Virus record (IMG/VR): IMGVR_UViG_2619619131_000010
Length of the DNA stretch: 6,611 bases
From: a virus
Taxonomy: Duplodnaviria; Heunggongvirae; Uroviricota; Caudoviricetes
Reading direction: 5' to 3' (one strand)
The position numbers and the translations under genes are program-made. This document shows positions 1,297 through 6,611 of the stretch, one piece after another. The notes beneath the pieces were generated by a model that saw only the letters and a program-made list of their open reading frames with translations, did no database searches and had not been told where the DNA came from. The first letter of the stretch is position 1. Every line of letters starts with the position of its first letter.

Positions 1297-1488
1297 TTAA
1301 AGACCTGCCGGGATTTCGTTATTATCCTGGTGAATAACTTTATCGACCGGGTAACAGTTACCGGGAATTTTCTGTTCGGTTGCTGCAGTCACACACTCCT
1401 GCATTGTCCTGTGAACACTGACTGCAATATCAACTGGCTCTCCGGAAACAAGAAAAACTGTCAGAACAAGTGCAAATGCTGTATTCAT
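1297..1488 (-). CDS. hypothetical small protein (63 aa) with hydrophobic N-terminus; occupies the racC/ydaE/kil-type slot
   Basis: ATG at 1488-1486 overlaps the upstream gene's TGA stop (ATGA, translational coupling). AGGA about 8 nt upstream. MNTAFALVLTVFLVSG hydrophobic segment. Track ORF 1297..1542 is a longer version of the same frame. Confidence 0.45.
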   Translation of the reverse strand: MNTAFALVLTVFLVSGEPVDIAVSVHRTMQECVTAATEQKIPGNCYPVDKVIHQDNNEIPAGL

Positions 1489-1673
1489 TGCCAGCATCCT
1501 TTTTGTATCGGACGTAAACGGGCCAGCATTGAAAGAATGCATATTTTATTTAATAGCTCCCGTTCGTGTTTTCTCTTGTTAATGGCATCTTCAGTAAATA
1601 CAGGGTTACTGATAGTGACACCAATTTCAAAACAACCTTCAGACGTATTAATGTTTGGTAATAACGTTTCCAT
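1485..1673 (-). CDS. hypothetical small protein (62 aa), early-left operon
   Basis: ATG at 1673-1671 with GAGGA about 8 nt upstream (METLLPNINTSEGCFEIG...). Stop overlaps the start of the next gene. The track's 97-aa version needs a GTG start at 1778 with no clear SD. Confidence 0.5.
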   Translation of the reverse strand: METLLPNINTSEGCFEIGVTISNPVFTEDAINKRKHERELLNKICILSMLARLRPIQKGCWQ

Positions 1674-3290: not shown

Positions 3291-3767
3291 TTAAGTTCCT
3301 GTCTTGGTGATGTTCTGGCTTTTCCGTTTTGATTCTTGATTTTTCAGATAGTTAGCTACCTTCATTTCCATTGCGGCAATGTAGGCGCGAACGTCATAAT
3401 CAACCCAACTAGGCTCCGTAGCATTTCCAGATAAGATGAAAGCCACAATTGCTTTTTTTTCATCAGAGGCGGCTTGATAAAGGCTGTTTATGTCTAAAAG
3501 TTCACTTTTTGTATCTGAAGTGGATGGGGTTGGTATGGGGTATTCGTTAAGCCCCCAATGCTCTGGACCAACCACATCAGAAAAGAAACGCCATAGTTCT
3601 GGAAGTTTGTCTTTACTTATCGAACCTTTCTTAATCCAGTCATGGATTGATGGTGGTTGGACTTTGAAATGACGTGCGATTTCCGCCTTTGATTTGACGG
3701 CTCCTGATGCAATTTTTTTGTTAATGGCCTGCTCTATCGCTCGGCCTAAGTCTTTACCACTAAGCAT
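3291..3767 (-). CDS. racR: Rac-type prophage repressor (RacR-like, 158 aa), the cI-equivalent immunity repressor
   Basis: Track ORF MLSGKDLGRAIEQAINKKIASGAVKSKAEIARHFKVQPPSIHDWIKKGS... with an N-terminal HTH. Divergent from the ydaS-like gene and flanked by operator-bearing promoters. Name from memory of E. coli K-12 RacR. Confidence 0.85.
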   Translation of the reverse strand: MLSGKDLGRAIEQAINKKIASGAVKSKAEIARHFKVQPPSIHDWIKKGSISKDKLPELWRFFSDVVGPEHWGLNEYPIPTPSTSDTKSELLDINSLYQAASDEKKAIVAFILSGNATEPSWVDYDVRAYIAAMEMKVANYLKNQESKRKSQNITKTGT

Positions 3768-3864: not shown

Positions 3865-3891
3865 TGTTGCGTGTTTTTTGGAGTTCATTCG

Positions 3892-4215
3892 ATGAAAAAA
3901 GATAACTATTCATTCAAACGAGCTTGTGCTGTTGTCGGTGGGCAATCAGCAATGGCTAGGCTTTTAGGTGTATCTCCTCCAAGCGTAAATCAATGGATCA
4001 AAGGTGTACGTCAGTTACCTGCTGAGAGATGTCCTGCGATTGAACGAGCAACAAAAGGTGGTGTCCTGTGTGAAGAACTTCGTCCTGATGTTGATTGGAC
4101 ATACTTACGACGCTCGTCATGTTATTCGCAGAATATGTCGATGAAGCAACCAAATGACGAAAACGATCATACCCGAAGCATCAAGAGGCAAATGATTCAT
4201 GAAAATCAAACATGA
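3892..4215 (+). CDS. ydaS: YdaS-like Cro-type HTH regulator (107 aa)
   Basis: MKKDNYSFKRACAVVGGQSAMARLLGVSPPSVNQWIKGVRQLPAERCPAIERATKGG... matches my recollection of Rac YdaS. ATG at 3892 with GGAG 8 nt upstream; the track's GTG at 3871 is a probable over-extension. Confidence 0.85.
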   Translation: MKKDNYSFKRACAVVGGQSAMARLLGVSPPSVNQWIKGVRQLPAERCPAIERATKGGVLCEELRPDVDWTYLRRSSCYSQNMSMKQPNDENDHTRSIKRQMIHENQT

Positions 4216-4624
4216 GCACATCCGCATGGCGATGAATGCCTGGGCATACCCTGATGGTGAGAAAGTTCCTGCAGCTGAAATAGCCCGGACTTATTTCGAA
4301 CTGGGGATGACGTTCCCTGAACTGTACGACGACAGCCATCCGGAAGCCCTGGCCCGTAATACCCAGAAAATTTTCCGTTGGCTGGATAAAGACACCCCTG
4401 ATGCTGTTGAAAAAATGCAGGCTCTGTTACCGGCGATCGAAAAGGCGATGCCGCCTTTGCTGGTGGCCCGTATGCGCAGCCACAGTTCTGAATATTACCG
4501 TGAGATCGTCGAACGGAGGGATCGGCTGGTGAAGGATGTCGATGATTTTGTTGCGTCAGCGGTTGTTTTGTATGACCAGATGAATCGCGGCGGCCCGGCA
4601 GGGAATGCTGTGGTGATGCACTAA
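4199..4624 (+). CDS. ydaT: YdaT-like protein (141 aa); the family has been annotated as a toxin but is also described as a CII-like regulator
   Basis: MKIKHEHIRMAMNAWAYPDGEKVPAAEIARTYFELGMTFPELYDDSHPEALARNTQKIFRW... matches my recollection of Rac YdaT. Start overlaps the ydaS 3' end by 17 nt. Confidence 0.85.
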   Translation: MKIKHEHIRMAMNAWAYPDGEKVPAAEIARTYFELGMTFPELYDDSHPEALARNTQKIFRWLDKDTPDAVEKMQALLPAIEKAMPPLLVARMRSHSSEYYREIVERRDRLVKDVDDFVASAVVLYDQMNRGGPAGNAVVMH

Positions 4625-4646
4625 AAGCACGGTGTTCGGGGGTTTT

Positions 4647-5609
4647 ATGAGCAGCAAGCTTCATGGTCTTGTCTGGGAAGGGTGCGCCTTCACCGGCATG
4701 ATCTTATCCAGGGTGGCGGTTATGGCCCGTCTTGCAGACTACAGCAATGACGAGGGCGTGTCATGGCCTGCCATTGAAACTATCCGGCGTCAGATCGGTG
4801 CAAGAAGTGAATCCACAGTGAAATCGGCTATTGCAGAACTGGCGAAAGAGGGCTGGCTGACGAAGGAAGAGCGTAAGGTCGGTGGGCGTAATGTAAGCAA
4901 TATCTATCGGCTTAATGTGGAAAAACTCGAAGCAGCTGCGGCGGCGGCGCGTGAGTCATATAAACCGAAAAGAAAAATTAGCCCGGCAAAAAATGACCCG
5001 TTAACAGTTGACCCGTCAAATATTGACCCCTCAACGGTTGACCCGTCAAATTTTGATGGATCAACTGTTGATAAAAAACTGCCGATTAGGGGGGCGATGA
5101 TTGACCCCGATCCGTCAGTATTAAAACCTGATCCGTCAGATAAAAGATCTTCTTGTCCGGACGCTTCGCAACCGGACCCGCAGACGGCTGAACAGGATTT
5201 TTTAACCCGACACCCTGACGCGGTTGTGTTCAGTGCGAAAAAACGCCAGTGGGGAAGTCAGGAAGATTTGGTGTGCGCACAGTGGATCTGGGGACGAATC
5301 GTGAGTCTTTACGAGCAGGCGGCCAGCGATGATGGCGAGATCACTAGACCGAAAGAACCCAACTGGACAGCATGGGCCAATGACGTTCGCACAATGCGGA
5401 TGCTGGATGGCAGAACTCACAGACAAATTTGTGAAATGTTTGGGCGTCTCCAGCGGGATTCGTTCTGGGTAAAAAACATCATGAGTCCGGCAAAACTCCG
5501 GGAAAAATGGGATGAACTGGTTATCCGCCTGGGGCGTTCGCCTGCGCAGCGTTGCGTGAATCACATTTCTGAACCGGACACTGAAATTCCGCCGGGCTTC
5601 AGGGGGTAA
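4647..5609 (+). CDS. phage replication initiator (lambda O-like architecture: N-terminal winged-HTH, iteron-encoding linker, C-terminal domain), 320 aa
   Basis: ATG at 4647 after a GGGGG run (the track ORF starts at an upstream GTG at 4632). N-terminal region (ILSRVAVMARLADYSNDEGVSWPAIETIRRQIGARSESTVKSAIAELAKEGWL) looks like a replication-initiator wHTH. Internal DPS-repeat linker coincides with the DNA iterons. Confidence 0.75.
   Translation: MSSKLHGLVWEGCAFTGMILSRVAVMARLADYSNDEGVSWPAIETIRRQIGARSESTVKSAIAELAKEGWLTKEERKVGGRNVSNIYRLNVEKLEAAAAAARESYKPKRKISPAKNDPLTVDPSNIDPSTVDPSNFDGSTVDKKLPIRGAMIDPDPSVLKPDPSDKRSSCPDASQPDPQTAEQDFLTRHPDAVVFSAKKRQWGSQEDLVCAQWIWGRIVSLYEQAASDDGEITRPKEPNWTAWANDVRTMRMLDGRTHRQICEMFGRLQRDSFWVKNIMSPAKLREKWDELVIRLGRSPAQRCVNHISEPDTEIPPGFRG
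4993..5079. repeat. iteron array (probable prophage replication origin): six 15-bp-periodic dyad-symmetric repeats, consensus TTGACCCGTCAA
   Basis: Repeats start at 4993/4994, 5008, 5023, 5038, 5053 and 5068 (TTGACCCGTCAA twice, TTGACCCCTCAA, TTGATGGATCAA, and degenerate end copies). Related copies at 5101-5117 and 5127-5140. Confidence 0.6.
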
Positions 5610-5649
5610 GTGTTAATTTCTGGTCATGAGGTAATTTTCAGGAGGGCTT

Positions 5650-6072
5650 GTGGCAAAAGTTTTTACACAAGAAGAGCGGGAGAAAATTAAAGGGCAGGTT
5701 GTTGAACTCGTACGCCAGAGTGGGCGCGAGACGTTACGACAACTGGAAACTAAAACTGGGGCAACAAGATATCTGATGAGCGTTCTGACCAGAGAGCTGG
5801 TTGCCAGTGGCGATGTATACAACTCTGGTTACGGGTTATTCCCGTCTGAACAGGTGCGTAAGGACTGGCAAAATGCCCGTAAAAAGCTCTCAAGGGCAAA
5901 GCCGAAGAAACCATCTGCGGTTGATCCGGACCTTATCTGGTCATTACCTGACGGAGAAATACGTCGCTACGACAGGCGTCAGAACATAATCTGTCGCGAG
6001 TGCCGGAAGAGCGAAGTTATGCAGCGCATATTGTCGTTTTATCAGGGTAATTTTCAGAAGGTGCTGTTGTGA
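5650..6072 (+). CDS. hypothetical 140-aa protein, possible HTH/winged-helix DNA-binding protein, downstream of the replication initiator
   Basis: GTG start at 5650 with AGGAGG 5 nt upstream (MAKVFTQEEREKIKGQVVELVRQSGRETLRQLETKTGATRYLMSV...). No Walker motif, so not a DnaC/P-type loader. Confidence 0.65.
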   Translation: MAKVFTQEEREKIKGQVVELVRQSGRETLRQLETKTGATRYLMSVLTRELVASGDVYNSGYGLFPSEQVRKDWQNARKKLSRAKPKKPSAVDPDLIWSLPDGEIRRYDRRQNIICRECRKSEVMQRILSFYQGNFQKVLL

Positions 6073-6176
6073 GCCAAATTAACAATCGGAACTTCGTGAA
6101 GAGAAAGCATAATCCAAATCTGGTGATGCTGCCAACTTACTGATTTAGTGTATGATGGTGTTTTTGAGGTGCTCCA

Positions 6177-6452
6177 GTGGCTTCTGTTTCTATCAGCTGT
6201 CCCTCCTGTTCAGCTACTGACGGGGTGGTGCGTAACGGCAAAAGCACCGCCGGACATCAGCGCTATCTCTGCTCTCACTGCCGTAAAACATGGCAACTGC
6301 AGTTCACTTACACCGCTTCTCAACCCGGTACGCACCAGAAAATCATTGATATGGCCATGAATGGCGTTGGATGCCGGGCAACTGCCCGCATTATCGGCGT
6401 TGGCCTCAACACGATTTTACGTCACTTAAAAAACTCAGGCCGCAGTCGGTAA
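6177..6452 (+). CDS. insA: IS1 InsA (transposition repressor, 91 aa)
   Basis: [51 protein letters not shown]... is the canonical InsA sequence; GTG start. Confidence 0.95.
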
Positions 6453-6611
6453 CCTCGCGCATACAGCCGGGCAGTGACGTCATCGTCTGCGCGGAAATGG
6501 ACGAACAGTGGGGCTATGTCGGGGCTAAATCGCGCCAGCGCTGGCTGTTTTACGCGTATGACAGGCTCCGGAAGACGGTTGTTGCGCACGTATTCGGTGA
6601 ACGCACTATGG
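6371..6611 (+). CDS. insB: IS1 InsB (transposase catalytic part, made as the InsAB' fusion by -1 frameshift), partial, 3' end outside the window
   Basis: Frame beginning atgccgggcaactgcccgc encodes MPGNSPHY...[33 protein letters not shown]..., recognisable as InsB. Confidence 0.9.

Follow-up and report, generated by a model that had tools for sequence, protein, structure and literature searches.

Does the repeat array inside the initiator gene of a lambdoid prophage serve as its replication origin, or does it only reflect the peptide that it encodes? The question is raised by a stretch of 6,611 nucleotides, IMG/VR record IMGVR_UViG_2619619131_000010, hereafter called the window, which derives from an Escherichia coli lambdoid prophage with Rac-type immunity genes. 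An earlier note, made from these letters alone, described short repeats (iterons) at 15-bp intervals within a gene encoding a 320-amino-acid replication initiator, and proposed that they form the prophage origin and are bound by the N-terminal domain of the same protein. Judged from sequence comparison, the region is very probably the replication origin of the prophage, bound by its own initiator. This reading is favoured because the layout is common with that of lambda, whose origin is established.

The initiator gene and its repeat array

The repeats lie in the middle of an O-like gene, the parts of which are as follows (positions in the window).

4647-5609, + strand: O-like replication-initiator gene, 320 amino acids (open reading frame; RefSeq coding sequence WP_000095671.1 in an identical prophage)
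4647-4961, + strand: N-terminal winged-helix domain, amino acids 1-105 (Pfam HTH_36)
4977-5177: zone of frozen synonymous sites, amino acids 111-177, assumed to delimit the cis-acting origin (codon entropy)
4993-5079: iteron array, five 12-bp near-palindromes and a half-site, with a period of 15 bp or 5 codons
5059, 5109, 5130 and 5146: cluster of GATC (Dam) sites, spanning 5059-5149
5115-5154: least stable 40 bp of the gene, 68% A+T, proposed DNA-unwinding element (nearest-neighbour profile, z = +2.7)
5190-5537, + strand: C-terminal domain homologous to the lambda O C-terminal domain, amino acids 182-297 (BLASTP against lambda O)
5544-5606, + strand: DnaT-like C-terminal tail, amino acids 300-320, …SEPDTEIPPGFRG, near-identical to the C-terminus of host DnaT

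The start codon is the ATG at 4647, as annotated by RefSeq in the identical prophage; an alternative upstream GTG at 4632 would extend the protein to 325 amino acids. The predicted protein matches phrog_391, 'replication initiation O-like', along its full length (E = 2e-115). Its C-terminal domain has 39% identity with lambda O over 119 amino acids (BLASTP, E = 5e-26, amino acids 182-300 against 171-277 of lambda O), and in tblastn it matches the O genes of lambda and of Shiga-toxin (Stx) phages. The alignment with lambda O is restricted to this domain, the N-terminal domain not being homologous to that of lambda O. With its HTH_36 winged helix, the full-length match and the lambda-like C-terminal domain, the protein is the initiator that the earlier note had taken it for.

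In the AlphaFold2 model the N-terminal domain has helices at residues 3-16, 20-31, 43-50 and 55-68, a beta-hairpin wing at 71-89 and a further helix at 91-105 (pLDDT 75-88). Foldseek searches with this model gave weak matches (E about 3e-3) to dimeric winged helix-turn-helix (wHTH) regulators of the ArsR/SmtB, MarR and PadR types. No specific solved relative was found in sequence and fold searches of the PDB, which returned generic dimeric wHTH regulators at weak E-values. Regulators of the ArsR/SmtB, MarR and PadR types bind dyad operators as dimers. The part encoded by the repeats, amino acids 109-179, is predicted to be disordered (pLDDT below 50), the C-terminal domain is modelled as helical (amino acids 180-297, pLDDT 70-89) and the C-terminal tail again as disordered. 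Sequence matches and model together show a predicted architecture shared with lambda O, namely a DNA-binding N-terminal domain, a flexible linker and a lambda-O-like C-terminal domain. The repeats had been placed in the linker between the two domains, with which both the predicted disorder and their offset within the gene, the same as for the lambda iterons, agree.

The individual sites of the array and those outside it are given below by their first position; mismatches are counted against TTGACNNGTCAA.

U1, 4993: ATGACCCGTTAA, 2 mismatches
U2, 5008: TTGACCCGTCAA, no mismatches
U3, 5023: TTGACCCCTCAA, 1 mismatch
U4, 5038: TTGACCCGTCAA, no mismatches
U5, 5053: TTGATGGATCAA, 2 mismatches, with its own dyad TTGAT/ATCAA and the centre inverted to GG
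U6, 5068: TTGATAAAAAAC, left half-site only
Outlying iteron-like site, 5101: TTGACCCC
Outlying iteron-like site, 5108-5117: CGATCCGTCA, overlapping a GATC
Outlying iteron-like site, 5129-5138: TGATCCGTCA, overlapping a GATC

Six full dyads at an exact spacing of 15 bp had been described; the spacing and five of the sites stand, but the sixth unit is a half-site only. Likewise, the two related copies reported at 5101-5140 are real but differ in kind. The outlying sites at 5108-5117 and 5129-5138 are 21 bp apart and flank an A/T-rich patch; these distal copies belong to a separate, conserved GATC- and A/T-rich module, the likeliest candidate for the unwinding region.

The array is not a chance feature of the composition: 2000 first-order Markov simulations of the window gave runs of at most two sites spaced by 15 bp (in 4 of the 2000), against five observed. 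Every match with one mismatch or fewer in a pattern search falls inside the array, to which the sites are also confined across 20.9 kb of the same prophage in strain E7476. The encoded peptide, NDPLT VDPSN IDPST VDPSN FDGST VDKKL, agrees with the DPS-type repeat that the five-codon period had been said to produce. Tandem Repeats Finder reported period 15 (about 5 copies) and also period 30 (2.5-3 copies, 80-84% matches). In many homologous arrays period 30 is scored above period 15 (84-92% matches; the window array at 4982-5071), and neighbouring units alternate, for example between CCCGTCA and GCATCA in their centres or between ATA and CGG in their spacers; two sites together, spanning about three helical turns, may form the functional unit.

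Homologous genes: selection on DNA and pairing of sites with the N-terminal domain

Homologues of the gene were collected from four phages and from 79 genomes of different species; a scan of viral contigs returned only near-identical copies. The HTH_36-type comparison comprised 57 non-identical genes with 34-100% amino acid identity, ranging from Escherichia to Providencia, Yersinia and Erwinia. Shared ancestry was left in the statistics, with the flanking domains of the same genes as internal controls.

All 57 of these genes contain 3-10 in-frame 15-bp units, at about nucleotides 300-470 of the gene. The earlier note had suggested that iteron copy number be compared across related prophages, and it does vary, in steps of five codons: the initiators of close relatives are 305, 310, 315 and 320 amino acids long, because the five-codon period allows sites to be gained or lost in frame. 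The origin would thus be evolvable, site number changing without a frameshift in the initiator.

The same regularity could mean that the repeats are merely the footprint of a flexible, DPS-rich peptide linker that changes by replication slippage and has no cis-acting function in the DNA. The period is exactly five codons, the encoded peptide is predicted to be disordered and copy number moves in steps of five amino acids, all of which suit that explanation. It does not account for the synonymous positions, which are frozen while amino acids vary. Normalised synonymous-codon entropy, calculated for columns with a conserved amino acid in an alignment of 66 HTH_36-type genes, was 0.23 in the linker (amino acids 106-180), compared with 0.81 in the N-terminal and 0.85 in the C-terminal domain (Mann-Whitney p = 7e-13). 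Among the 66 homologues Asp155 and Asp162 are encoded by GAT in 100%, Asp177 by GAC in 100%, and Ser134, Ser157 and Ser164 by TCA in 100%, whereas the control residues Asp31 and Asp35 are split about 50:50 between GAC and GAT. In the linker 308 of 345 [DE]xS motifs (89%) have TCA for serine, but elsewhere only 41 of 155 do; a T stands before GA in 253 of the 345 linker motifs, although the codon concerned specifies 16 different amino acids. For Asp, the outlying GATC sites always have GAT and the array mostly GAC. That the repeats are selected as DNA, as the proposal of an origin implied, is therefore borne out by near-invariant synonymous sites in the linker and their freedom in both flanking domains.

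Sites are also found without the peptide. Read on the opposite strand, U3 (TTGACCCCTCAA) is identical to the TTGAGGGGTCAA units present in arrays of Morganella and Edwardsiella; in the TTGAGGGGTCAA orientation the site encodes EGS or EGL instead of DPS, and both orientations occur within one Edwardsiella array. In the Stx2a phage Stx2_KH16-043 (L005) the 14-mer TTTGACCCTTCAGA is present at nucleotides 429 and 461 of the gene, 32 bp apart, and the two copies lie in different reading frames (FDPSD and RLTLQN). The C-terminal half of the Stx2_KH16-043 initiator is different and not lambda-like.

Finally, relatives with the same C-terminal domain and unrelated N-terminal domains have, in the same place, four to five direct repeats of 22-23 bp with internal dyads of their own, a period which is not a multiple of three and cannot encode a peptide repeat.

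Genes with 22-23-bp iterons: L093, L112, L115, L116, L118, L120, L123 and L151; iterons at about nucleotides 280-480 of the gene; N-terminal domains unassigned in Pfam

Together these DNA-level tests largely refute the peptide-only explanation, and we regard it as hardly credible. Examples of the 22-23-bp iterons are CATCGGGTCAAAATGACACGATG, CCGCAGAATCGCGG… and CGGCTCTTAAGCCG…. After most sets there are 2.5-3.8 copies of ACAGAGAATACA, a 12-bp A/T-rich repeat that encodes TE(N/I)T and is probably the unwinding element of these genes.

Four clades of the HTH_36 N-terminal domain pair with four site types.

Window clade: TTGACCCNTCAA
Majority clade (SfII, SfIV, PhiR49_1 type): TCTGACGCRTCAAAA
KH16-043 clade: CTGAACNTTCAGA
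L102, the most divergent N-terminal domain: GTGAGGGCTCAC, outer bases changed symmetrically

Family-wide, the TGA-N4-TCA core and the outermost T/A pair alone are conserved in the sites. Extended dyad symmetry was considered as a rule for the family and rejected, the inner pair being complementary in 39% of distinct sites compared with 35% in shuffles, which is not significant. The type of repeat thus changes with the N-terminal domain, both within the HTH_36 family and upon its full replacement, in keeping with the binding postulated in the earlier note. Site type tracks the N-terminal domain across relatives, so the domain and the repeats travel as one cassette, as expected if the N-terminal domain binds the repeats. 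The HTH_36 domain is used by viable phages, namely SfII, SfIV, phiP27, PhiR49_1 and Eeyore.

In a natural variant of 265 amino acids, P0023, all residues from the DPS of unit 4 up to that of the second GATC site are missing. Recombination between iteron-like repeats seems to have deleted the spacer together with the A/T-rich block, and the carrier of this variant is presumably an origin-defective prophage.

The putative origin, its relatives and the alternatives

The least stable 40 bp of the gene begin 36 bp to the right of the last unit of the array. The homologous block is also the least stable of the gene in phage PhiR49_1 (z = 3.3), and when the same profile was calculated for lambda O, its least stable 40-mer was the known AT-rich region directly to the right of the iterons. 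Four of the window's 18 GATC sites fall in a stretch of 91 bp in this part of the gene. A pair of GATCC(G/A)TCA motifs, 18-24 bp apart, is found in most of the 57 genes and is the only source of GATC in several of them. GATC sites are also present in the A/T-rich part of P1 oriR and of oriC (review PMC4980987).

With a relaxed DnaA-box consensus there is one perfect match, TTTTCCACA, at 4916-4924 on the - strand, 69 bp to the left of the array, and one match resembling the 13-mers of oriC, GATCTTTTATCTG, at 5137-5149 (- strand). For both DnaA boxes and 13-mers the window-wide match counts are equal to chance; TTTTCCACA falls within conserved NVEKL codons. To the right of the A/T-rich block, in 5154-5180, CCGGAC occurs twice, 15 bp apart (5157 and 5172), and the codons of Cys170 (TGT) and Asp177 (GAC) are invariant in every homologue that conserves those residues. 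This conserved DNA is possibly a site for a host factor.

The following mechanism would fit these features. The region of about 4977-5177, inside the part of the initiator gene that encodes the disordered linker of its own product, would be the vegetative origin. Dimers of the N-terminal winged helix would bind sites with a TGA-N4-TCA core (TTGAC-NN-GTCAA in the window clade), and five to six such sites, packed at 15 bp, would build with the two GATC-overlapping outliers a nucleoprotein complex comparable to the lambda O-some. The complex would stress and open the adjacent A/T-rich block at 5115-5154, and the conserved GATC pair probably places firing under the control of Dam methylation and SeqA. 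The initiator would then probably bring in host DnaB-DnaC directly, by way of its lambda-O-like C-terminal domain and DnaT-like tail, since no P-like or DnaC-like gene follows.

The four iterons of the lambda origin are inverted repeats of 18 bp, with an O dimer bound to each; a 39-bp region of high AT content adjoins them, and O has a flexible linker (PMC6022878). As in lambda, the putative origin described here is contained in the initiator gene, where the linker joins a DNA-binding N-terminal domain to a homologous C-terminal domain; the array occupies nucleotides 347-436 of the gene, the lambda iterons nucleotides 349-435 of O; and the repeats have internal dyad symmetry, the low-stability A/T-rich block to their right being a candidate counterpart of the AT-rich region of lambda. 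The differences are that the N-terminal domain is a non-homologous HTH_36 winged helix, that 12-bp sites recur every 15 bp instead of sites of about 19 bp every 20-24 bp, that the period is in whole codons with sites in both orientations within the family and a conserved GATC pair in the A/T-rich block, and that there is no P gene and a DnaT-like tail replaces the …TDWIYGVDL of lambda.

Shiga-toxin phages of the 933W type have six iterons in the O gene, extra copies adding in-frame residues to O (PMC7466680). The number of linker iterons varies among related Stx lambdoid phages as it does here, but these phages keep the lambda-type N-terminal domain, iterons and P, whereas the present family swaps the entire cassette of N-terminal domain and iterons. 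The resemblance to P1 oriL is that this lytic origin is embedded in repL, the coding sequence of its own initiator, so that synonymous positions carry a cis function (PMC9948254). The P1 initiator is unrelated. Iteron plasmids have in common with the window direct repeats beside an A/T-rich unwinding region that are bound by a winged-helix initiator, the binding and the unwinding being predicted here. The iterons of plasmids (pSC101, P1 oriR, R6K, RK2, F) are 17-22 bp long, about two helical turns apart and located outside the rep gene; here the period is 15 bp and the repeats are inside the gene. We know of no comparable tandem iteron array described for P1 oriL. Homology of the initiator to Rep_3 or to WH1-WH2 was not detected in Pfam, NCBIfam, PDB sequence and Foldseek searches.

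Several points weigh against the reading as an origin. The homologue statistics are uncorrected for shared ancestry, even though the flanking domains act as internal controls, and beyond the TGA/TCA core dyad symmetry is unsupported family-wide (inner positions 39% against 35% in shuffles). The A/T-rich block is weaker than that of lambda (68% compared with 78% A+T) and is broken by GATCCGTCAG. With 15 bp making about 1.4 helical turns, adjacent sites are turned to different faces of the helix, and from this packing the geometry of the complex is unlike that of lambda. An IS1 element starts at 6122, just downstream of the initiator region, and the prophage may be defective. In a full-text literature search no experimental binding or origin activity was found for any member of the family; the same search found no paper on the origin of this family, although an earlier prediction in a review of phage replication modules is possible.

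It could be argued that the sites do bind the N-terminal domain, but mainly for control, as an autoregulatory roadblock of the early transcript or in titration or handcuffing, and that the origin is elsewhere. The iterons of plasmids are established to have such dual roles (review PMC4980987), the A/T-rich block is modest, and the tight 15-bp packing resembles the operator arrays of MarR/ArsR-type repressors, the closest folds. The position of the array nevertheless equals that of the proven origin of lambda, the conserved low-stability GATC module next to it and about 200 bp of synonymous constraint fit a complete origin, and no second cluster of sites is found in 21 kb of the prophage. We consider a purely regulatory array improbable; control and origin roles can, moreover, coexist.

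The array also folds far better than shuffled sequences (z = -3.75 and -6.75, and -6 to -8 in several homologues), which would be expected if the repeats mattered as secondary structure, either as an mRNA hairpin regulating translation of the initiator or as a cruciform or hairpin forming a PriA-type primosome assembly site. The latter would suit the DnaT-like tail. When the order of the 15-bp units was permuted, however, the folding energy stayed the same (53 arrays, mean z = +0.14, two below -1.64), and an array-level hairpin or cruciform was rejected as a selected feature. Because unit order leaves the energy unchanged, the hairpin potential is an automatic by-product of tandem near-palindromes. 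Several homologues fold weakly (z -1.3 to -2.9) and the synonymous constraint extends to non-repeated linker codons, which leaves a role as secondary structure very improbable.

Returning to the repeats as initiator-bound iterons, that an origin lies inside a lambdoid O gene is a textbook principle, and the bare finding would be expected by a phage specialist. With good confidence, again from sequence, the locus can be described more specifically as a lambda-type embedded origin with a different cassette of N-terminal domain and iterons, in-frame 15-bp sites, a GATC-marked putative unwinding block and no partner loader gene. The HTH_36 and 15-bp iteron cassette is uncharacterised, and it is present in thousands of E. 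coli, Shigella, Klebsiella and Salmonella prophages as well as in phages SfII, SfIV and phiP27. Synonymous sites near-frozen over about 200 bp are a case of overlapping codes and offer a computational signature for gene-embedded origins. Specific pairs of initiator and iterons could act as orthogonal conditional replicons, and they are relevant to the induction of prophages in pathogenic E. coli and Shigella.

The DnaT-like tail and the prophage context

The last 20 residues of the initiator (…RCVNHISEPDTEIPPGFRG) have 14 of 20 identities with the C-terminus of DnaT in BLASTP, in which only the tail aligns. A PDB sequence search with the initiator matched the DnaT chains 2ru8, 6aep and 9zbt through the tail, and positions 159-179 of the NCBIfam DnaT model match it as well. 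The DnaT sequence used in hhalign and BLASTP has the same last 21 residues as PDB DnaT chain 9zbt. Homology to DnaT beyond the tail was rejected: the family profile gave nothing against the PDB, hhalign assigned a probability of 0.2%, and BLASTP aligned the last 20 residues only.

No P-like or DnaC-like loader gene follows the initiator in the window, where a DUF977/Ren-like gene and then IS1 are found, and no helicase-loader gene is annotated beside the initiator in PhiR49_1 and Eeyore. All 54 non-identical genes with the …IP.GFRG tail are without a P-like open reading frame within 2.6 kb downstream, and each of the 11 genes whose tail is of the lambda-O-like …W..GW..L type has an overlapping P-like gene (phrog_109) after it, an association with a Fisher p of 1e-12, phylogeny not corrected (loci within L002-L164). 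The C-terminus of lambda O is …TDWIYGVDL, the last five residues of which are essential (PMC6022878).

From these sequences the tail looks like a swappable module that decides the mode of helicase recruitment. We propose tentatively, as a possibility and not the expected outcome, that the origin fires without a phage-encoded loader and that the DnaT-like tail is a portable motif which recruits host DnaB-DnaC or PriA/PriB to the iteron-bound complex. How the DnaT-containing preprimosome recruits DnaB/DnaC is stated to be unknown (PMC13377028). If the proposal is true, these phages point to the function of the DnaT tail and would provide a simple origin-dependent assay for the hand-off from DnaT-type factors to DnaB/DnaC. 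The tail and its perfect anti-correlation with the P-like gene hint at how initiators without a loader recruit the host helicase, and this correlation is a more promising lead than the bare finding of an origin.

The other genes surrounding the initiator in the window are as follows.

3291-3767, - strand: racR, Rac-type immunity gene
3886-4215: ydaS/cro-like gene, Rac-type immunity region
4199-4624: ydaT/cII-like gene, Rac-type immunity region
5650-6072: DUF977/Ren-like gene, the next gene after the initiator
6122-6611: left end of IS1 (GGTGATGCTGCCAACTTACTG…), with insA at 6177-6452, 50 bp past the DUF977 gene

A prophage with 99.8% identity sits beside ompW in strain E7476 and in many other genomes. 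Since the phage genes of E7476 are uninterrupted at the same point, the IS1 insertion is specific to the lineage of the source strain. No internal promoters or terminators were found in 4600-5700.

An Rfam scan found no family in the origin region; its sole match in the window, elsewhere, is a full-length DicF antisense sRNA at 1848-1899 on the - strand (RF00039, 76.7 bits against a gathering score of 48). DicF lies upstream of the cell-division-inhibitor gene dicB (about 1484-1672, minus strand), the arrangement of the Qin prophage, here within a prophage of Rac-type immunity.

Five loci of the homologue set (L094, L097, L131, L139 and L161) carry this enterobacterial prophage gene on contigs labelled as other taxa, namely a Bacillota metagenome-assembled genome (MAG), a Veillonella parvula MAG, Vagococcus sp., Martelella alba and Chryseobacterium sp. 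These labels most likely reflect binning or assembly contamination in public genomes.

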